From Chitinophagaceae bacterium (GTDB taxonomy: Bacteria; Bacteroidota; Bacteroidia; Chitinophagales; Chitinophagaceae): a DNA stretch of 64,000 nt. Of the stretch, positions 4,498-59,874 are shown piece by piece. The stretch is taken from NCBI GenBank assembly GCA_035318845.1, contig DATHDV010000213.1:267-64266 (forward strand). The letters are read 5' to 3'. How positions within the stretch are numbered: position 1 is the first letter of the stretch; each line of letters begins with the position of its first letter. The position numbers and the translations under genes are program-made. The notes under the pieces were generated by a model. That model worked only from the letters and a program-made list of their open reading frames with translations, did not search any database and was not told the origin of the DNA.

Positions 4498-7400
4498 TTA
4501 GCTAAAAAGGTATTCCACATCTTCCCTCGTCAGCGCCTTCACAAACGAAGCATCGTCTGAAATGATATCTTTTGCCAATGCCCGTTTCTTTTCCTGGAGT
4601 TGAAGTATTTTATCTTCAATCGTATCCTTGCAGATCATACGGTAGGCAAATATGTTTTTGGTTTGCCCGATACGATGTGTCCGGTCAATGGCCTGTTGCT
4701 CCACGGCCGGGTTCCACCAGGGGTCAACGATGTACACATAATCAGCAGCGGTAAGATTCAAACCCACACCACCTGCCTTCAGTGAAATAAGGAACACTCT
4801 TATATCGTCATTGTTCTGGAAGCTGTCAATAGCGGTTTGTCTATCCGGGGCTGATGTGCTACCGTCAAAATATTCATATTTGATTCCCAGTTCTTCCAGT
4901 TTTTCTTTTATTAAAGCAAGCATTCCCAAAAACTGCGAAAAGATCAAAGCCTTATGGTTACCCATATCCTCACTTAATTCTCTTGCCAGCTCATCTAATT
5001 TGATAGAGTGGTTGTCAAATTTTTCCTGTTCATTCAATATCGCCGGTGAGTCGCAGATCTGCCGCAGTTTCATCAATCCCTGCAAAATAGTAAGCTGTGA
5101 TTTTTGTATGCCTTGCGTTTCTATGGTCCCCAATATCTGGTTGCGGAAATCATTGCGGTAGGCATCATAGATGTTCCGCTGCTCTTCTTCCATTTCACAG
5201 AATAAAATGATCTCCTGTTTTTCGGGAAGGTCTTTTGCCACCTGTTCTTTTGTTCTTCTTAAAATAAATGGATAAAGAATTTTTCTAAGGTGGTCTTTCC
5301 TGTCTTTGTCGCCAAACTTATCAATGGGGATGGAAAACTCCTGCCGGAAAAACTCCATCGTGCCCAGCATGCCCGGGTTCAGGAAATTCATTTGTGCAAA
5401 AATGTCAAACGTATTATTCTGCAGCGGCGTTCCGCTCATACACAGGCGGTTCTTTGCTTTTAATAACCCAGCTGCCCTTGTTACTTTGCTCGAAGGGTTT
5501 TTGATGGCCTGGCTTTCATCCAGTATCACATAATCAAACTCAACGCTCATCAGCAGCTTTATGTCGCTGCGCAAAGTACCATAGGTTGTAATCGTGATAT
5601 CATGATCCAGCAGTTCTTCTTTTATTCTTGTTCTTACAGCTCCATGATGAATTCTCCATGTTAACTTGGGTGTGAATTTTTTTATTTCATTCTCCCAGTT
5701 ATAGATCAGCGTGGTGGGACAAACAACCAGTGCCTTTATACTGCCGATCTCTTTTTTATAATATTCAAGAAAGGATAATGCCTGCACCGTTTTACCCAAA
5801 CCCATATCATCCGCCAGTATGCCGCCCCATTTAATGTCTTTCAGGTAATTCAACCATTGATAGCCCGATACCTGGTAGGGCCGCAATATCATTTTCAAAG
5901 CATAGGGCGGATCGATCTCTTTTATTTTATTAAACTCTTTGAGGTTTTCATATTTTTCTTCCAGGTTCACCATCAGTTCTTCTTCATTCCTCGTTTCATA
6001 TAATTCGTCGATCACACTTAAATGATAGCGGGATAGTTTCAGCGAATCGGTCTTGCCTTCACCTACGCGGAATAACAAAGAATATTTTTTTAACCATTCT
6101 TCCGGTAAAATGCCGAGAGTGCCGTCATTCAGTTGCACAAACTGCTGTTTATTGGCCAATGCCCGTTTCACTTCAGCCACCGTTACTTTCTGGTCGCCAA
6201 AAAGGATATCCACTTTAGCGTCAAACCAATCTGTATTGCTGCTGATGAAGATCTTTGTTTGTGGTTTGGCGGTATTGAAGCGGAAATTTTTTAATGCCTC
6301 AAAACCAAACACAGGCGTCTTCATCTCTTTCATCGCATCTACAAACAAAAAGAACCAGTTGTTTTTCAGCACATCCGTTCCTTTTAATACCAGGGAGGAT
6401 GAATCTTCATTGTATACAAAACCAGAATGAAGGTTTTGTATTTTTTGGAGGAATTCATTTTCCTTTTCCCGGTTACGATGAACGATCAGGACCTTATCGC
6501 CCTGCGGCACTATCAATTCGTCCCTGTCCTTTGCTCTTGTTTCATAACCTTTATACGAGAAAGATGGCTGAAAGACGAGGTAATCTCCTTTTTCCAGCAA
6601 AAACAATTTTACATCCGGGTTTCCATCTTTTATTTCCTGTACCATCGACCTGTCAAAATCCACCTTGTGCTCTTTGGCCAAAGGCAAAATGAATTGATTC
6701 AATGATTGGCTCCATTCTTCTGCCGGCACATTCATTTTTCCTCCCGGCAAAAATTTGTCTATTAAATGAATTACATCATTGCTCTTCCAGAGGTAGATCT
6801 GGTGATTATATAAAAAGAAAAGCGGGCTGTTACTTTCATTATCAGCAAGATCATATTCAATACCGCCGGCATTTACCCTGCACTGAATGGTATAATGCGA
6901 GTTCTTTTTAATAATAAAATGAGGCCTTGCTTCTTCCGCCTGCAATTGTAGCTGTAGGAGGTTAACTGTTTTAAATGGCTTTTTGTCCGGCAGCAGGAAT
7001 ACAAACGGGTTGTCTGCTGATTCGGTAAAGATCTTTTTCAGTTTGGGCAACAGGTACTCAGCCATCAGTTCTTTCGTTTCATCGGGCAGATCATCTTCTT
7101 CCTGGTGAATGATATTTTCCCAGATGCCTGAAAAAGGCGAGTTGCGGTTGATGTATTTATTAATTTCCGGTTCCTGCAGTTTGCGCAGGGATGTAAGCAG
7201 GTTTTTATCTTCTTCTGAAAGCGTATCTGTATTTACATACCTGCTGATATCTGTTTTTTCAACTTTCCCGGTAAAGGCATTATTATTTTCATTGGGTTCG
7301 CCAATAACAACATCAACGGTAAAATGGGGATAGTTTTTTTTACCGAAATTAAAAACGATGCCCAGTCTTTGCGAAGACCTCGCCACTTCTGCTTCCATGA

Positions 7401-8259
7401 CCTGCGGCGATTCAATTTCTTTTTCTCTGATGGGAAGGAATACCGTTTTTTCCGGAATTGCCGAAGGGGCCACTCTTTTGATACCGGGATCCATGACTCT
7501 CAAAAAAGGTTTGCCATCTTTATATACAAATTCAAATTTTCCTTTCAGGTCATCGCTTAAGGAATACCCGTAGGCTTCCAGCAATTTATTTTTTTCTTTA
7601 TCCCAGTTGCGGATGCTATCGAAATAATTGGGGCCGTAATTATTCATCAGTTGCAGCAATACGATCACTTTGGGCAGGCAGAGCGGGTGTTCTTTATCCT
7701 CGTAATCACAACTGGTATCAAAATTCCTTTCATCATTTTTCCGGATAATTACTTTGCAGGATTGCCCGTTCACATTCACCAATGCTTTCACCGTTTCATT
7801 CCCTGCATATTCAATGGAAGCCTTGTTTGTTCTCAGGAATCTTTCTGCTTCTTCAAACACTTCGGGTGAAGAAAAAAGCCGCAGGCTCTTCAGGTCGATT
7901 GTTTTCATCTTGACAACCGTATGCCGCTGGTCATACTGTATATGATCTGCCTGCAGGTGACCGCGGTCGATCAGCTCCTGCAGTTGAAATAATGCTGCTG
8001 CTTCATGGCGGCAGATATCACCCAGGTTATACGGGCATCCGCAGCGAAGCGATGTGGCTTTGGGGTCTTTGAATTTTTGAATATAAACTTTATAATACGT
8101 GGCATAGCTATCATCTTTTACCCGGAACACCGCGGAGCCAAAGAGGTCATCATATTCCACCAGTTCTACATAACCAATGGCATGTATTTTTTTTCCCCGG
8201 CGGATCACTTCATCCGTGCCATGTGTGTAAACATATTTAATAAGGTGCGGTAATGCCAT
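4498..8259 (-). CDS. SWIM zinc-finger SNF2-family helicase/ATPase
   Basis: SWIM CGCPYNLGDICRH; motif I LADDMGLGKT; DESQ; SGTPLQN; LKAGGVGLNLTAAD; QAIDRTHRIGQ. Start moved to ATG 8259 (MALPH). Confidence 0.93.
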   Translation of the reverse strand: MALPHLIKYVYTHGTDEVIRRGKKIHAIGYVELVEYDDLFGSAVFRVKDDSYATYYKVYIQKFKDPKATSLRCGCPYNLGDICRHEAAALFQLQELIDRGHLQADHIQYDQRHTVVKMKTIDLKSLRLFSSPEVFEEAERFLRTNKASIEYAGNETVKALVNVNGQSCKVIIRKNDERNFDTSCDYEDKEHPLCLPKVIVLLQLMNNYGPNYFDSIRNWDKEKNKLLEAYGYSLSDDLKGKFEFVYKDGKPFLRVMDPGIKRVAPSAIPEKTVFLPIREKEIESPQVMEAEVARSSQRLGIVFNFGKKNYPHFTVDVVIGEPNENNNAFTGKVEKTDISRYVNTDTLSEEDKNLLTSLRKLQEPEINKYINRNSPFSGIWENIIHQEEDDLPDETKELMAEYLLPKLKKIFTESADNPFVFLLPDKKPFKTVNLLQLQLQAEEARPHFIIKKNSHYTIQCRVNAGGIEYDLADNESNSPLFFLYNHQIYLWKSNDVIHLIDKFLPGGKMNVPAEEWSQSLNQFILPLAKEHKVDFDRSMVQEIKDGNPDVKLFLLEKGDYLVFQPSFSYKGYETRAKDRDELIVPQGDKVLIVHRNREKENEFLQKIQNLHSGFVYNEDSSSLVLKGTDVLKNNWFFLFVDAMKEMKTPVFGFEALKNFRFNTAKPQTKIFISSNTDWFDAKVDILFGDQKVTVAEVKRALANKQQFVQLNDGTLGILPEEWLKKYSLLFRVGEGKTDSLKLSRYHLSVIDELYETRNEEELMVNLEEKYENLKEFNKIKEIDPPYALKMILRPYQVSGYQWLNYLKDIKWGGILADDMGLGKTVQALSFLEYYKKEIGSIKALVVCPTTLIYNWENEIKKFTPKLTWRIHHGAVRTRIKEELLDHDITITTYGTLRSDIKLLMSVEFDYVILDESQAIKNPSSKVTRAAGLLKAKNRLCMSGTPLQNNTFDIFAQMNFLNPGMLGTMEFFRQEFSIPIDKFGDKDRKDHLRKILYPFILRRTKEQVAKDLPEKQEIILFCEMEEEQRNIYDAYRNDFRNQILGTIETQGIQKSQLTILQGLMKLRQICDSPAILNEQEKFDNHSIKLDELARELSEDMGNHKALIFSQFLGMLALIKEKLEELGIKYEYFDGSTSAPDRQTAIDSFQNNDDIRVFLISLKAGGVGLNLTAADYVYIVDPWWNPAVEQQAIDRTHRIGQTKNIFAYRMICKDTIEDKILQLQEKKRALAKDIISDDASFVKALTREDVEYLFS

Positions 8260-8267
8260 ATTGTCAA

Positions 8268-8340
8268 TTGGCAATGGGCAATAGGCAATGATTGTCCTTG
8301 TATTGCCCTTTGCCTATTGTCTATTGCAGGTTGCTTATTG
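8268..8340. repeat. Heptamer hairpin element (GGCAATG/GGCAATA...TATTGCC)
   Basis: Tandem GGCAATR arm followed by a complementary TATTGYC arm; same family as the insert in mnmH at 23351-23426. Confidence 0.8.
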
Positions 8341-9917: not shown

Positions 9918-10000
9918 AAAATTAGAAATGAAAAATACAAATGAGAAGATACTTCGTACACTTCCTCATTTCTCATTCCTTATTTCTTATTTCTCATTCT
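9918..10000. repeat. Heptamer hairpin element (AAATTAG/AAATGAG...CTCATTT/CTTATTT)
   Basis: Tandem 7-mers followed by a complementary arm, directly after the gcvT stop. Confidence 0.75.
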
Positions 10001-23095: not shown

Positions 23096-24241
23096 ATGGC
23101 GATCGAGAAAGTACATATTGAACAATTTCTTGAACTGGCAAAGCAATATCCCGTCATTGACGTTCGCAGCCCGGTAGAATATAAACATGCACATATTCCG
23201 AATGCGTATAGTTTGCCATTGTTTACTGATGAAGAAAGAAAAGTTGTCGGCACTACTTATAAACAACAAAGCCGTGAACAAGCTATTAAGGTTGGATTAG
23301 ATTTCTTTGGGCCGAAGATGAAGCTTATGGTTGAAAAAGCTGAAGAAATAATTGGCAATAGACAACAGGCAATAAACAATCCTTCTAATACCGAAAGCTC
23401 TTTGCCCATTGCCAATTGCCTATTGCTTTACTGCTGGCGCGGCGGCATGCGCAGCGCAGGTGTTGCCTGGTTATTGGATCTTTATGGTTTCAAAGTTTAT
23501 ACGCTTGTTGGCGGTTATAAAAAATTCAGAAATTATGTCCTGGATACTTTCAAAATTCCTTTCCACTTCAACATACTTGGTGGTTATACCGGCTCGGGGA
23601 AAACAGGGTTATTAAAAGCATTACAACAAAAGGGGGAGGGAGTTATTGACCTGGAAGGTTTTGCTAATCATAAAGGTTCTGCTTTTGGAAATATCGGTAT
23701 GCCGGCTCAGCCAACACAGGAGATGTTTGAAAATCTTCTTGCTACAAGCCTTAACGATGTAGGAAGTCAGAAGTCGGAAGTCGGAGGCTCTCTGAACTCT
23801 GACCTCATACCTCAGACCTCTGGTATCTGGCTCGAAGATGAAAGCCAGCGCATCGGCCTGGTCAACATCCCAAATGAGCTTTGGAAAAACATGCGGCAAT
23901 CTGCTGTTTATTTCCTGGATATCCCTTTTGAAGAACGCTTGAAACATATTGTGCAGGAATATGGTAACCTGGATCAGGAAAAACTAATTGATGCCATTAG
24001 CCGGATCTCTCAAAAATTGGGCAATTTAAATGCAAAAACAGCTATTTTGCTGCTAAAAGAGGGCAAAATCACCGAAAGTTTCGACATTTTGCTGAAATAC
24101 TACGATAAGCTTTATTTCAAGTCTTTGCACAATCGGGAAGGGATAAATTCGTTATTACATACAGTTGAATGTAAATCCATAACCCCTGAAAATACCAGCC
24201 TTCTTGCTCTTCAGTTCCAACATCAATATCAAACATCTTAA
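23096..24241 (+). CDS. mnmH: tRNA 2-selenouridine(34) synthase
   Basis: Rhodanese IDVRSPVEY and YCWRGGMRS; P-loop GGYTGSGKT; DLEGFANHKGSAFG; WLEDESQRIG. selD lies downstream. Confidence 0.96.
   Translation: MAIEKVHIEQFLELAKQYPVIDVRSPVEYKHAHIPNAYSLPLFTDEERKVVGTTYKQQSREQAIKVGLDFFGPKMKLMVEKAEEIIGNRQQAINNPSNTESSLPIANCLLLYCWRGGMRSAGVAWLLDLYGFKVYTLVGGYKKFRNYVLDTFKIPFHFNILGGYTGSGKTGLLKALQQKGEGVIDLEGFANHKGSAFGNIGMPAQPTQEMFENLLATSLNDVGSQKSEVGGSLNSDLIPQTSGIWLEDESQRIGLVNIPNELWKNMRQSAVYFLDIPFEERLKHIVQEYGNLDQEKLIDAISRISQKLGNLNAKTAILLLKEGKITESFDILLKYYDKLYFKSLHNREGINSLLHTVECKSITPENTSLLALQFQHQYQTS
23351..23426. repeat. Heptamer hairpin inserted in-frame in mnmH (IGNRQQAINN...LPIANCLL)
   Basis: GGCAATA-GACAACA-GGCAATA arm and TTGCCCA-TTGCCAA-TTGCCTA arm; same family as 8268-8340. 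Confidence 0.75.
23762..23822. repeat. Second heptamer hairpin in-frame in mnmH (GSQKSEVGGSLNSDLIPQTS)
   Basis: GGAAGTC-AGAAGTC-GGAAGTC arm and CTCTGAC-CTCATAC-CTCAGAC-CTCTG arm. Confidence 0.75.
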
Positions 24242-25892
24242 GCTTACGGCGTTATTCCTGTTATCGCCGCTGTTCTTTTTTGCCCAATCGCTTACCGGTC
24301 TGTGGACAGGAGCATTAAGCAATGACAGCGCTACTATCCGGAAAGATCAGTCATTTGAAATCGCATTGACGGAATACCGGGGCAAAGTATATGGTTATTC
24401 CCGCAGCGAATTTATCGTTAATGATACTTTGTATTACATTGTAAAAAGAGTAAAAGGAACCATTGATGGTGATGTGTGTGAAGTAACAGACGACGATATT
24501 ATTTCTTATAACTTTCGCGGAAAATTGGATAAGGGTGTAAAAGTAACCAGCATTTTTCGCCGCAACGAGGCAGACAGTACCTGGTATTTGGATGGCACCT
24601 GGAAAACAAATGCAACCCGGAAATATTATGCAGTAACCGGCAAAGTTGGTTTGCAGGAAGAAAAAGATCTGAATGCATCAAAACTTTTTCCGCACCTGGA
24701 AGAACTGAACCTGGCGAACGATGTCGCTTTTTATAAGGATAGAAAAGAAGGTCCCCCCATTGTTAAAGTCGCTCATCCTGAAAAAATAAAAACCGAATAC
24801 AATGATCGCCCTCAGCCTTTAGTGATCAACAACGATATTGCAATTGTTCCTGCTAAACCAAATTTACAAAAAGCAGAACCCGGTCCTGTCCCCGTTTTAG
24901 CTAATGAAACAATTGATGACATCGCAAAAGTTGAGTCGCAGGCAGAGCCGCGTGCTGATAAAAACCCGGTTGCCGATCTGCCAAAAACCGATATAAAGAA
25001 TATTCCTTCGGCCTCTGTTTCTGTTATTCCCATGCAGGTAACAAAAACAATTGCCGAAACCAAAAAGCCGGAGTTAATTGTAGCACCTGAGAAAACAACT
25101 ACATCTGTTGGTACTGTTACAGAAAAAAATGAAATAAAATCAGAGCCCATTGCTAAAACAGCAGAGAAACAGGAACAGTCTATTGTAAAAAATCAACCAT
25201 CGTCTATAAAACAAGCTTCTGCAATTGTAAATAACCCTGATACAAAAACGGTTGCTGTTGTAAACAATCCTGCTCCTGAAAAGAAAGAATCCCGCCCGGA
25301 TATCCCGGTCGGGCAGGTAAAATCACAGCCGATTGCTAAAACAGTAGTGAGCCAGGAAAAGCCAGTTGTAAAAACACAATCAGCACCAACAAAACAACCT
25401 GATGCAATTGTAAAGAAGACGGATACAAAGAGTGTTGCTATCAACAATCCTGTTCCTGAAAAAAAGGAACCCGAAACGGTTGCCAAACCAATAATACCAG
25501 AAGTTAAGAAGCCGGCTGCTGATGTAACAGCTAAAGCCGCTGTTATTGAAGGAAGAAAATCAGAATTCACACAGGTTGTGAACTTTAAAGCCGACAGTCT
25601 TGAGTTGTCTCTTTATGATAATGGAGAAATTGATGGCGATACGGTAAGTGTGTTTATGAATGGAGAAGTACTTATGTCAAGACAAGGTTTGAAAGCAAGT
25701 GCTATTAAGAAAACCATTTACATAACTCCGGATAATGAAGATTTTACATTGGTCTTGTTTGCAGATAATTTAGGAAAGTATCCTCCCAACACCGGCCTGC
25801 TGGTAGTACATGACGGGGATGATGTTTATAATCTTCGTTTCAGCTCTGATTTTCAGAAAAGTTCCGGGATAGTATTCAAGAGAAAAAAATAA
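24204..25892 (+). CDS. Exported hypothetical protein: N-terminal globular domain, P/K/E/T-rich linker with internal duplication, C-terminal YDNGEIDGDT domain
   Basis: 562-aa ORF with signal-like KHLKLTALFLLSPLFFFAQ; start codon uncertain (TTG, overlapping the mnmH 3' end). Confidence 0.8.
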   Translation: MLFSSNINIKHLKLTALFLLSPLFFFAQSLTGLWTGALSNDSATIRKDQSFEIALTEYRGKVYGYSRSEFIVNDTLYYIVKRVKGTIDGDVCEVTDDDIISYNFRGKLDKGVKVTSIFRRNEADSTWYLDGTWKTNATRKYYAVTGKVGLQEEKDLNASKLFPHLEELNLANDVAFYKDRKEGPPIVKVAHPEKIKTEYNDRPQPLVINNDIAIVPAKPNLQKAEPGPVPVLANETIDDIAKVESQAEPRADKNPVADLPKTDIKNIPSASVSVIPMQVTKTIAETKKPELIVAPEKTTTSVGTVTEKNEIKSEPIAKTAEKQEQSIVKNQPSSIKQASAIVNNPDTKTVAVVNNPAPEKKESRPDIPVGQVKSQPIAKTVVSQEKPVVKTQSAPTKQPDAIVKKTDTKSVAINNPVPEKKEPETVAKPIIPEVKKPAADVTAKAAVIEGRKSEFTQVVNFKADSLELSLYDNGEIDGDTVSVFMNGEVLMSRQGLKASAIKKTIYITPDNEDFTLVLFADNLGKYPPNTGLLVVHDGDDVYNLRFSSDFQKSSGIVFKRKK

Positions 25893-26003: not shown

Positions 26004-27056
26004 ATGACTCAAGATCTTGTACGATTGACGCAATACTCTCACGGCGCAGGATGCGGCTGCAAAATTTCTCCAAAGGTTTTAGATGAAATACTGAAAAGCA
26101 GCATTGCTTTACCCGACAATAATAAATTACTGGTCGGCAATCACAGTAAGGATGATGCAGCAGTATATGACCTGGGAAATGGAATGGCGTTGATCTCTAC
26201 CACTGATTTCTTTATGCCGATCGTTGATGATGCCTTTGATTTTGGAAGGATCGCTGCGGCCAATTCCATCAGTGATGTGTATGCCATGGGCGGAAAACCA
26301 TTGATGGCGATCGCTATCCTCGGCTGGCCGGTGGGAAAGTTGCCGGTTGAATTGGCACAAAAAATAATTGAAGGCGGAAGAACGATTTGTGCTGAAGCTG
26401 GTATACCATTGGCAGGCGGACATAGTATTGATTCGCCGGAACCTATCTTTGGTTTGGCAGTGACCGGTATTGTTCCGATTGAATATTTAAAGAAGAATAA
26501 TACGGCGCAGGAAGGCGATCATTTATTCCTAACCAAGCCACTTGGCGTTGGCATTTTATCTACCGCACAAAAAAGAGGTTTGTTGAAAGAAGAGCATTTG
26601 CCAATAATGATCGGACAAATGACAACGCTGAATAAAATAGGTGAGGAGCTTGGTAAAATAAAAGGCGTGACCGCCATGACAGACGTTACCGGTTTTGGTT
26701 TACTGGGACATTTAATTGAAATGGCCGAAGGCAGTGGACTAAGTGCAGAAATTTATTACAACAAAATACCTGTGGCAGCAGGAGTGAAAGAATATATTGC
26801 TCAACGAATTTTCCCGGACGCCACTACCCGTAATTGGAGCAGTTACAGCGATAAAGTAAAATTTGAAAAGGGAGTGAACGTGATGGAGGCTTTTACTTTG
26901 CTGCCTGATCCGCAGACGAACGGCGGGCTGCTCCTAAGTGTAAATGAGAAAGATCTTGAACAGGTAAAAACTTTGTTACAAGAAAATGGCATTTCTTCCG
27001 TTATAGCGATAGGCAGAATGCTGACAGCTAATGAAAAAGTGGTTTGGGTGAAATAA
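26004..27056 (+). CDS. selD: Selenide, water dikinase (Cys form)
   Basis: LTQYSHGAGCGCKISP; TTDFFMPIVDD; NSISDVYAMGG; DVTGFGLLGH; PDPQTNGGLL. Confidence 0.97.
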   Translation: MTQDLVRLTQYSHGAGCGCKISPKVLDEILKSSIALPDNNKLLVGNHSKDDAAVYDLGNGMALISTTDFFMPIVDDAFDFGRIAAANSISDVYAMGGKPLMAIAILGWPVGKLPVELAQKIIEGGRTICAEAGIPLAGGHSIDSPEPIFGLAVTGIVPIEYLKKNNTAQEGDHLFLTKPLGVGILSTAQKRGLLKEEHLPIMIGQMTTLNKIGEELGKIKGVTAMTDVTGFGLLGHLIEMAEGSGLSAEIYYNKIPVAAGVKEYIAQRIFPDATTRNWSSYSDKVKFEKGVNVMEAFTLLPDPQTNGGLLLSVNEKDLEQVKTLLQENGISSVIAIGRMLTANEKVVWVK

Positions 27057-29755: not shown

Positions 29756-30205
29756 CTAAAAGACCAAATGTTCTTTGTTTTTTATTTTTTCATTAGTTAG
29801 TTCTAATACCAATTGTACGCTGTTAATGGTTTTGATGGTTTGAATCGTTTCCTGCAATGATTCATCGCTTACCTCATCTCCTTTCATCAGCCATAAAAAG
29901 TCAAGGTGTTTGAATTCCGGTAATAGATATTCCCCGTCAAACTGGTTCTTGTACACATAATGTGATAAGAAACGGGTGGGCTCACAATATTCATAGACCG
30001 TAAAAAAATAGCTCCGCTTTTTTTTGGTAAGCTGAATTTCCAGGTCGTTATTGATGCGGAAGTTTAAACCGATCGTACTGTTGAGGTTCCAGCAAAACTG
30101 GTAATCTTTGACAGGAGCCATGATACCGATCAGCCTGGTATCGGAAAAAAATTCATCAGTAAGTTTTTCGGTATCAAGGACCAGTTTGAGGTTGCGGTCT
30201 GACAT
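29756..30205 (-). CDS. IPExxxVDY family protein
   Basis: LLPEFKHLDFLWLM variant of the namesake motif; DYQFCWNLN. Confidence 0.8.
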   Translation of the reverse strand: MSDRNLKLVLDTEKLTDEFFSDTRLIGIMAPVKDYQFCWNLNSTIGLNFRINNDLEIQLTKKKRSYFFTVYEYCEPTRFLSHYVYKNQFDGEYLLPEFKHLDFLWLMKGDEVSDESLQETIQTIKTINSVQLVLELTNEKIKNKEHLVF

Positions 30206-58218: not shown

Positions 58219-59874
58219 ATGTCTAAAAACTTAAGTGAGCTTTCCGGGAGAAAAGGATTAAACGAAAATCTTTTCGAAGAGCTGGGTATTGCTGCCCGGC
58301 CGGCGGGAACCCCTTCTGTTGAAAAAATGGAAATACTCGCCGATGAATTCATCATGGGCAAGGCCAATGTATATGGGGCTGCGAGTTTTTATGATTTCCT
58401 CAAACCAGGGAACCAGGGAAAGAAAGTATATATCTGCAACGGCAGTTCCTGCCTGACTGCCGGCACGCAAGATGTTCTGAAAGAAAAACTACTGAAACAA
58501 TATAAGCCAGAGGAGATCGGTGAAATGTGTTGCCTGGGAAGATGCCACGAGAACAATTCGTTTCATATTGGTGGAAAAAATTATTCGGGCAATGCTATTG
58601 ATGAGATTGATGCCATTAAAAAAAATAATACAATTGTTGCTGACAAATACAATGTGGCTTCTTATGGTACTGCAGTCCTCACTTCTTCTTTTCCCGGAAT
58701 AAAAGAATATTATTCCATACTGCCTGATGTATTAAAAAGATCTGCAGATGAATTACTGGAAGAATTAAAAATATCAGGGTTACGGGGTCGTGGCGGAGCC
58801 GGTTTTCCCATCGCTTTTAAATTGGATGCCTGCAAAAAAGAAACGGCAAAACAAAAATTCATTGTATGCAATGCAGATGAAGGTGACCCCGGCGCTTATA
58901 GCGACCGATATTTACTGGAACTTCAACCGCATAGCGTTTTACTGGGAATGATGATCGCCGGGTATATTGCCGGTGCTGATGTTGGCGTTGTATATATCCG
59001 GGCAGAATATCCTGAATCAATTACAATAACTCAGAATGCGATCGATGACCTGCACAAGCTGCATTTGCTGGGTGAAAATATTTTAGGGTCCGGCTTTAAT
59101 TTCAACTTCAAAGTGATCGGTGCGCAGGGTGCCTATATCTGCGGCGAAGAAACTGCCTTACTTTCTTCTATCGAAGGACAAAGACCGGAGGTAAGAGTTC
59201 GCCCACCTTATCCAGTACAACAGGGATTGTTTAATAAACCAACGGTTGTAAACAATGTGGAAACGTTGGCCTGCATTCCTTATATCATTAAAAACGGCGG
59301 AAAGAAATTTGCTTCCATTGGTATTGGCAAATCAACCGGAACAAAATTGATATCGTTGGATGGTTTCTTTAATAAACCCGGGATTTATGAAGTAGATATG
59401 GGAACCCCGCTTTCTGTTGTGGTGAACGATCTCGGAGGCGGATTTAACTCAGCAATAAAAGCCATGCATATCGGAGGTCCGCTGGGTGGTTTGGTTCCTG
59501 TTTCTAAGATCAATGATCTTACGGTTGACTTCGAATCTTTTTCCCAAAATGGTTTTTTACTGGGACACGCTTCTGTTGTTTGTATTCCTGAAGATTTTCC
59601 AATCATAAAATACCTGGAACATTTATTTGAGTTTACCGCACATGAAAGTTGTGGTAAATGTTTTCCCTGTCGTCTTGGTTCGGTAAGAGGATACGAGATG
59701 CTGAAGAAAGCGCAGGAAAGTGATTATAAGATCGACAGGACATTGCTGAATGACCTGATAGAAACTTTGGAGATCGGTTCGCTTTGTGCATTGGGTGGGG
59801 GATTGCCTCTTCCCATAAAAAATGCATTGCAGTATTTTGATAAAGAACTATCACCTTACTTTAAAAAATCCTGA
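58219..59874 (+). CDS. NAD-linked formate dehydrogenase flavoprotein subunit (NuoE-like [2Fe-2S] domain fused to NuoF-like FMN/NADH subunit)
   Basis: ICNGSSC...CCLGRC; GLRGRGGAGFP; CNADEGDPG; YIRAEY; GAYICGEET; NNVET; ESCGKCFPCR...SLC. Confidence 0.9.
   Translation: MSKNLSELSGRKGLNENLFEELGIAARPAGTPSVEKMEILADEFIMGKANVYGAASFYDFLKPGNQGKKVYICNGSSCLTAGTQDVLKEKLLKQYKPEEIGEMCCLGRCHENNSFHIGGKNYSGNAIDEIDAIKKNNTIVADKYNVASYGTAVLTSSFPGIKEYYSILPDVLKRSADELLEELKISGLRGRGGAGFPIAFKLDACKKETAKQKFIVCNADEGDPGAYSDRYLLELQPHSVLLGMMIAGYIAGADVGVVYIRAEYPESITITQNAIDDLHKLHLLGENILGSGFNFNFKVIGAQGAYICGEETALLSSIEGQRPEVRVRPPYPVQQGLFNKPTVVNNVETLACIPYIIKNGGKKFASIGIGKSTGTKLISLDGFFNKPGIYEVDMGTPLSVVVNDLGGGFNSAIKAMHIGGPLGGLVPVSKINDLTVDFESFSQNGFLLGHASVVCIPEDFPIIKYLEHLFEFTAHESCGKCFPCRLGSVRGYEMLKKAQESDYKIDRTLLNDLIETLEIGSLCALGGGLPLPIKNALQYFDKELSPYFKKS

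Follow-up and report, generated by a model that had tools for sequence, protein, structure and literature searches.

In-frame heptamer hairpin cassettes in tRNA 2-selenouridine synthase of a Chitinophagaceae bacterium

The mnmH gene of a Chitinophagaceae bacterium, encoding tRNA 2-selenouridine(34) synthase, carries two in-frame palindromic segments built from tandem 7-nt units. The gene lies in the window analysed here, a 64,000-nucleotide stretch of contig DATHDV010000213.1 (positions 267 to 64,266 of the forward strand; assembly GCA_035318845.1). We propose that the two segments are probably heptamer hairpin cassettes resembling the short tandemly repeated repetitive sequences (STRRs) of cyanobacteria, that they were added to a shorter ancestral enzyme, and that they turn over by slippage, template switching and replacement. 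The features that carry this argument are as follows.

23096..24241, plus strand: mnmH, tRNA 2-selenouridine(34) synthase, an intact 381-codon open reading frame (ORF) that hosts both cassettes
23351..23426, plus strand: site-1 cassette, 76 nt, residues 86-111, IGNRQQAINNPSNTESSLPIANCLL, in frame, just before CWRGG
23762..23822, plus strand: site-2 cassette, 61 nt, residues 223-243, GSQKSEVGGSLNSDLIPQTS, in frame, just before WLEDES
8260..8330, plus strand: free intergenic GGCAATN hairpin of the site-1 unit family, -31.9 kcal/mol, z -3.2

The site-1 cassette opens with a left arm (23351-23380) of four degenerate GGCAATN units (GGCAATA GACAACA GGCAATA AACAAT). A loop at about 23381-23401 separates it from a right arm (23402-23426) of three and a half TTGCCNA units, called as TTGCCCA TTGCCAA TTGCCTA TTGC. 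Two inverted repeats join the arms, 23350-23372 with 23402-23424 (23 nt, 78%) and 23355-23373 with 23408-23426 (19 nt, 84%). At site 2 the left arm (23762-23787) holds three and a half copies of GGAAGTC/AGAAGTC (GGAAGTC AGAAGTC GGAAGTC GG). The right arm (23796-23822) reads GACCTCA/TACCTCA/GACCTCT, with its array called as ACCTCAT ACCTCAG ACCTCTG; it pairs with GARGTC, with G:U pairs on the antisense strand, and an inverted repeat links 23756-23778 to 23791-23813 (23 nt, 74%). Period-7 arrays were called within mnmH at 23400-23428, 23762-23787 and 23802-23822. Both sites therefore have opposed heptamer arrays able to form a hairpin, the trait of STRRs and of heptanucleotide long simple sequence repeats (LSSRs).

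Folded as RNA, site 1 reaches -18.8 kcal/mol on the sense strand (z -3.6) and -35.3 kcal/mol on the antisense strand (z -5.6), clearly beyond chance. The site-2 hairpin is modest when taken alone (sense -23.1 kcal/mol, z -0.4; antisense -26.8 kcal/mol, z -2.4), and it is backed by its period-7 arms and by the comparative data below. The free hairpin resembles site 1 over 17-18 nt of arm only. It adjoins the start region of a minus-strand ORF of 1258 codons (4498..8274), where it begins 2 nt upstream of a minus-strand ATG (8256-8258) and so occupies the immediate 5' leader. An earlier note on this DNA, made from the letters alone, had described the two in-frame segments, their peptides, their placement before CWRGG and WLEDES, and a free GGCAATN copy. 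The open frame, the inverted repeats and the period-7 arrays bear out each of these, and the free copy exists at 8260-8330.

Both segments are derived additions to ancestrally short helix-to-strand connections. The 101 orthologue DNAs that we compared include mnmH of 24 genomes in the genus and of two others in the order. The MnmH product aligns to the NCBIfam profile NF008750 with 340 residues on 311 profile positions, and PDB 3g5j, a solved rhodanese-domain homologue, aligns across site 1 with a 16-residue gap. The distance from GLDxxG to CWRGG is 22-23 codons in three distant orthologues (L014, L020 and L024) compared with 40 here. EMFEN is separated from WLEDES by 15-22 codons in these three compared with 31 here; orthologues that are short at site 2 include L024 with 15 codons and L016 and L018 with 20. 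The site-1 segment is absent from L014, L020, L024, P0055, P0075 and P0115, and short-loop orthologues also occur within the genus. Among the 101 orthologues, lengths range from 22 to 48 codons at site 1 and from 14 to 50 codons at site 2. Length and hairpin strength go together when the cassettes are scored against all other 90-nt segments of the same gene: median fold z is -2.5 for long and -0.65 for short cassettes at site 1, and -1.7 and -0.4, respectively, at site 2. The cassette is the most stable fold of the whole gene in 45% of orthologues at site 1 and in 31% at site 2.

The added peptides map to loops of the predicted structure. An AlphaFold2 model built from a 25-sequence alignment (mean predicted local distance difference test score, pLDDT, 71; predicted template modelling score 0.66) has pLDDT below 50 at residues 89-105 and 227-241. 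In this model site 1 falls between a confident helix (60-86) and a strand (108-112) that leads into C113-WRGG, and site 2 between a confident helix (208-228) and a strand (244-247) that leads into WLEDES. Each insert thus sits at the N-terminal end of a β-strand whose C-terminal end bears a catalytic motif. The N-terminal strand end of an α/β fold faces away from the active site, and fold topology therefore suggests that the inserts would lie opposite the catalytic cysteine loop and the Walker-B-like WLEDES. The translated cassettes form disordered polar loops, which are probably neutral for the enzyme.

At least six heptamer families fill the two MnmH sites among the orthologues. Site 1 holds GGCAATN (encoding IGN...PIANC), GAGTCNN (ES[IL]V.SRES...DSRLIL) or TTGGCAG (SQQLAVGN...LPTANC). 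Site 2 holds GARGTC (SQKSEV...SDL.PQTS), GTGAATN (IVNSEWSI...HSPLTIHHSP), GAGCTGC (SCELRAISCEQ), TTGGCAG or GACCGTT. Close relatives differ in which cassettes they share with the window. P0002 (89% identity, rising to 95% when the sites are masked) shares the site-1 cassette and has a GTGAAT cassette at site 2; P0005 (86% identity) shares the site-2 cassette and has a short GAGTC array at site 1; and P0055 is short at both sites. Because the stems reach two to three codons into the flanks (EEII and ANCLL with GGCAAT, ESIV and DSRLIL with GAGTC), relatives differ by block replacement rather than by insertion into an unchanged site. On a maximum-likelihood tree of 116 homologues, from which both sites were removed before building, cassette class changes at least 27 times at site 1 and at least 33 times at site 2 when labels of 'other' are dropped. 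With all labels kept there are 40 and 42 changes, compared with 45-57 and 55-67 for shuffled labels.

Smaller changes, seen in two close pairs, come in exact steps. P0005 and P0055 differ by a single 21-nt gap of three heptamers (GGGAGTC AGGAGTC GGGAGTC), or seven codons. L011 and L008 likewise differ by a single 21-nt gap, again three heptamers (AGTAGCC AGGAGTC GGCTGTT) and seven codons. We infer that these exact three-heptamer differences are the signature of in-situ array slippage. Moreover, the GGCTGTT added in L011 is the reverse complement of an AACAGCC already present downstream, the outcome that would be expected of intrastrand template switching in this one case.

The MnmH cassettes have many counterparts elsewhere in the genome (4.06 Mb, 41% G+C), which contains 669 period-7 arrays compared with 55 at period 8 and 48 at period 9. 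As in STRRs and heptanucleotide LSSRs, a 7-nt unit repeated in tandem three times or more occurs at many loci, and the units come from a limited vocabulary (AGCTNTT, GGCAATN, GTGAATN, GAGTCGT, CAAGGTA, AACCAGC, AATAAGG and others). We called hairpin loci by duplex energy calibrated on random segments, because a criterion of ungapped Watson-Crick pairing did not pick up the MnmH cassettes. Of the 669 arrays, 151 have a partner past the 1% threshold of the null. Only 15% of the 152 hairpin loci lie within open frames of at least 120 codons, versus 86% of random 80-nt segments, and a crude gene set, in which coding density is 87%, contains 15 of the 152; hairpins are therefore strongly depleted from genes. 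Intergenic hairpins are only mildly enriched between convergent genes. Other in-frame hosts are urocanate hydratase (HutU), LipB, a TrpG/PabA amidotransferase, a copper/heavy-metal (CopA-type) P-type ATPase, an ABC-F protein, a fused E1 dehydrogenase, an ATP-binding cassette (ABC) ATPase and an unnamed 380-codon ORF on contig C21. MnmH is the sole gene found with two in-frame hairpins. The in-frame hairpins in other genes, by contig and position, are:

C130:14693-14758, in-frame hairpin
C46:10781-10863, in-frame hairpin
C72:15364-15429, in-frame hairpin
C258:12880-12957, in-frame hairpin
C31:12154-12255, in-frame hairpin
C38:29548-29632, in-frame hairpin
C57:36726-36804, in-frame hairpin
C21:3437-3524, in-frame hairpin

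The window itself has other period-7 arrays, a GAGTTNN array at 829-852 and a T-rich array at 29769-29790, as well as, at 9972-9999, a CTCATTC/CTTATTT array whose weak partner lies at 9918-9946.

The mechanism we propose brings these observations together. Each cassette consists of two opposed short arrays of one 7-nt unit around a unique loop, and is one of a large set of heptamer hairpins, found throughout the genome and the genus, that are defined by their unit and lie mostly between genes. The arrays would lengthen and shorten by replication slippage, and the complementary arm may be made or kept through intrastrand template switching. Survivors within genes would be those that leave the frame open (multiples of 3 nt, typically 21-nt steps), contain no stop codon and fall in permissive loops. 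Whole cassettes, together with two to three flanking codons, are exchanged for other heptamer families; the route would be homologous recombination from one lineage to another, short-patch copying from arrays of the same genome, or both. An aged cassette would lose its hairpin and from then on evolve as an ordinary linker peptide.

Several observations weigh against this account. Site 1 exceeds 25 codons in 94 of the 101 orthologues, and both sites are filled in nearly all genus members; this near-universal occupancy could reflect selection for a longer loop or for nucleic-acid structure. Three tandem copies of GGCAATN occur in 9 of 201 genomes, from 8 of 96 genera of the order, and for GTGAATN arrays five genus members have 69-112 matches each, the other fifteen at most 11. 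A unit vocabulary shared over loci, species and genera implies copying or transfer of arrays, not purely local birth. Indeed, the two GTGAAT site-2 cassettes found among 19 genus loci are both in GTGAAT-rich genomes (2 of 5 rich genomes versus 0 of 15 poor ones), and the association, with a hypergeometric estimate of p ~0.05, is suggestive only. All four combinations of the major cassette classes are common, so that recombination between lineages and recurrent insertion are inseparable. The pair that points to template switching is a single case. Finally, the antisense fold at site 2 is more stable in 67 of the 101 orthologues and the sense fold in 11, while site 1 has no strand bias (sense better in 42, antisense in 33). 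The site-2 bias may stem in part from the purine degeneracy (R) of GARGTC combined with amino-acid preferences; sense T-to-C changes (Phe/Leu to Leu/Pro codons) may leave G:U pairs on the antisense strand only.

The genome also has a genuine small dispersed element, for which heptamer arrays are a target; it contrasts with the cassettes, whose families are defined by their unit. This is the 22-nt perfect palindrome ACCTGCCTGCCGGCAGGCAGGT, with 50 genome copies at three mismatches or fewer, 13 of them exact (for example C38:22515-22536 and C21:3989-4010); the window has a three-mismatch copy only, at 58452-58471. Fifteen of the 50 copies lie in crude genes, where the palindrome is read in frame as, for example, LPAGQAG. 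Excising it in silico restores a period-7 array at 6 of the 50 sites versus 9 of 2000 at random (p 7e-7); strict adjacency to called arrays, seen at 2 of the 50, is not significant (p 0.12). In P0035 (L236:409-431) a 21-nt version, CCTGCCTACCGGACAGGCAGG, is precisely inserted in the right arm of the site-1 cassette and turns KDSRV into KDLPTGQAGSRV. The exact 22-mer is found in at least 120 genome stretches from many phyla, which among the matches listed include Bacteroidota, Patescibacteria, Planctomycetota, Gammaproteobacteria, Ignavibacteria, Nitrospirota and others.

Precise insertion of a 21-22 nt palindrome in arrays means that hairpin-targeted insertion operates in this lineage, and it lends some weight to a different explanation of the cassettes themselves. 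[quoted passage not shown] The same unit families are met with at different loci and in different genomes, some relatives have a filled site where others have an empty one, and the genome encodes four matches to Y1_Tnp (PF01797), three of them above cut-off, with homologues on contigs C269 and C57. However, a search of the whole genome with both cassettes and the free copy (blastn-short) returned arm matches of at most 27 nt (at most about 26 nt for either cassette), and the loops of all three had no match anywhere in the genome. Since the arms alone are shared, a 'family' is a common 7-nt unit and not a common element, and on these arm-only matches we rejected a MITE-like full-length family. 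The dozens of units would, moreover, need dozens of specificities. The combination that marks MITEs (terminal inverted repeats, duplication and a conserved interior) is not found here: the internal loops are unique, and the filled-versus-empty junctions of aligned relatives display neither a target-site duplication nor fixed termini. Length differences come in whole heptamer triplets. Nor do the PF01797 genes have heptamer arrays flanking them beyond chance, with one pair within 1.5 kb of one gene and none near the rest, where about 0.5 per gene is expected; a RAYT link was rejected on this basis. We found neither the shared 20-40 nt palindrome nor the repeat-flanked cognate Y1 gene of REP/REPIN-RAYT systems. 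We therefore regard mobile elements as an unlikely explanation and conclude that the arrays were propagated somehow, not as classical cut-and-paste units. A more speculative proposal, which we judge to be distinctly improbable, is that a dedicated trans-acting process rewrites the hairpins and swaps whole cassettes at fixed structure-prone hot spots genus-wide; candidates within the same proposal are a hairpin- or single-strand-specific nuclease or recombinase, or a repeat-adding polymerase. If it were true, the process would constitute a hypervariable in-frame cassette system (MnmH, HutU, LipB, TrpG, CopA), and the cosmopolitan 21-22 nt palindrome nesting in arrays would share its entry route.

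Selection offers another route to filled sites. The hairpins could act in the mRNA, by pausing ribosomes before the catalytic-motif strands or by stabilizing the message, or the variable surface loops could be adaptive in themselves. Nearly every member of the genus has both sites filled, immediately upstream of those strands, and in one register an apparent compensatory change sets L029 (AGCAAT/ATTGCT) apart from the window (GGCAAT/ATTGCC). Yet the five GGCAAT-class site-1 sequences give one apparent compensatory pair, for which the heptamer register is ambiguous, and RNAalifold finds no conserved long hairpin in a site-2 cassette kept across 16 diverged orthologues. Covariation as a sign of selected structure is unsupported by this pair and the RNAalifold null. 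Absence of a conserved hairpin from an old cassette indicates that structure is lost with age, and this speaks against selection for a role in RNA or DNA. Furthermore, shuffled sequences fold as well as the sense strand of site 2 (z -0.4), one family or length can stand in for another, short-loop orthologues occur within the genus, and the repeats occur at unrelated positions of unrelated enzymes and are mostly intergenic. A selected function is thus very unlikely to account for the cassettes. Even less credible, and already largely refuted, is the idea that the segments are ancestral variable linkers or assembly artefacts, palindromic by chance or low complexity. Helix-to-strand linkers are often variable and the sense fold at site 2 is unremarkable. 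However, the arms have a period of 7, antisense z reaches -5.6 and -2.4, the units recur in intergenic hairpins, and outgroups and the solved homologue are short. Misassembly is unlikely because a protein identical to this MnmH is recorded from a second contig (1.98 Mb) and near-identical cassettes are present in independent metagenome assemblies.

Our preferred reading, of STRR-like cassettes that turn over quickly, keeps part of what the earlier note had proposed, namely that mobile mini-hairpins were making new loops. Derived, in-frame, palindromic blocks that add loops stand; mobile elements inserted as units are not supported. The clean gaps that it anticipated in orthologues were found, as empty sites, 21-nt gaps and other palindromic families at both positions, and loops of the same length that were non-palindromic and ancestral did not turn up among the orthologues. 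Structural mapping and a genome scan for heptamer hairpins, which it also suggested, placed both inserts in low-pLDDT loops and gave about 150 hairpin loci together with further in-frame hosts such as HutU and LipB.

The cassettes share features with several known repeat systems and match none of them entirely. Rickettsia palindromic elements (RPEs), the closest parallel in effect, are in-frame palindromic repeats within many unrelated enzymes (PMC10969869, summarising Ogata et al. 2000). Like RPEs, the repeats described here are palindromic, lie in frame in conserved genes with many hosts per genome, and are translated as extra peptide compatible with the fold. However, RPEs are ~100-150 bp long with a full-length consensus and a conserved peptide, and these last traits are lacking here: the cassettes are 61-76 bp of tandem 7-nt units with unique loops, several families alternate at one site, lengths change in three-unit steps, and peptides differ between cassettes of one site. 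The host, too, is different, a Chitinophagaceae-like member of the Bacteroidota. As RPEs do in Rickettsia, a rapidly changing class of repeats here remodels protein loops.

STRRs, which the cassettes resemble in anatomy, are hairpin-forming 7-bp repeats, mostly intergenic, of filamentous cyanobacteria (PMC2670836), and heptamer repeats are recorded in a few Bacteroidetes (PMC4679880). The repeats of this genome resemble STRRs in having tandem 7-nt units at many dispersed loci, in their capacity to form hairpins and in their variability between strains. They differ in that published STRRs are intergenic or lie in untranslated regions or RNA genes, whereas the present ones lie in frames that code for protein, and one enzyme has two hot spots. 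The top units also differ from the canonical cyanobacterial STRR1-3 units. Vioque is reported to have described, in 1997, STRR-type heptamers within the gene for RNase P RNA, in a helix that tolerates them. REPs and REPINs with RAYT transposases are short dispersed hairpin repeats, mostly extragenic, with an enrichment between genes (PMC3116915, PMC3733652). Our hairpins are likewise short, dispersed and mostly extragenic, in a genome with Y1 transposase homologues, but REPs conserve a stretch of 20-40 nt headed by GTAG/CGTC and flank their RAYT gene, and the heptamer hairpins do neither. The 21-22 nt palindrome is comparable to a Nostoc repeat class in being a small palindrome within heptamer arrays and in frame in genes. 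That class, the small dispersed repeats (SDRs), was reportedly described by Elhai et al. in 2008. The palindrome is unlike the Nostoc SDRs in sequence and phylum, and it is also separate from the two cassettes of the window. In the limited literature collection searched, we found no report of heptamer hairpins translated in frame in Bacteroidota.

The host gene is a bona fide mnmH. Its product scores 351.5 bits against NF008750 (cut-off 241) and 314.9 bits against TIGR03167 (cut-off 219.75), and its N-terminal half matches the Pfam Rhodanese family (PF00581). It thus exceeds the cut-off of the equivalog hidden Markov model and has both a rhodanese domain with an active-site cysteine loop and a P-loop domain. 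CWRGG, GGYTGSGKT and WLEDES are invariant in MnmH across 25 homologues. Its pathway partner is encoded 1.8 kb downstream on the same strand:

26022..26951, plus strand: selD, selenophosphate synthetase, MnmH pathway partner (TIGR00476, 427 bits; contig position C213:26288-27217)

The presence of selD implies that the selenium pathway of the host gene is intact. Between the two genes, and overlapping the end of mnmH, lies a plus-strand ORF of 562 codons (24204-25892). Its central 300 residues are of low complexity, rich in Lys, Pro, Glu and Val, with repeated '...NNPxPEKKE...' segments, and its homologues in related contigs are without any recorded Pfam family.

In-frame palindromic repeats are textbook knowledge for Rickettsia only, and STRR-type heptamers have been mainly intergenic curiosities of cyanobacteria. 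Here both meet: in a genus of free-living Bacteroidota, core enzymes contain heptamer hairpins that are translated as loops. Gene calling, alignment, phylogeny and structure prediction can all be led astray by such cassettes, which show up in predicted structures as segments of low pLDDT. As a natural experiment MnmH is unusually clean: it combines two hot spots with more than 100 orthologues and at least six interchangeable families, and its variants include empty alleles and 21-nt steps. It allows the origin of the repeats (slippage and template switching versus transposition) and the tolerance of enzymes for de novo disordered loops to be tested, and it also bears on whether small palindromes target hairpin DNA.

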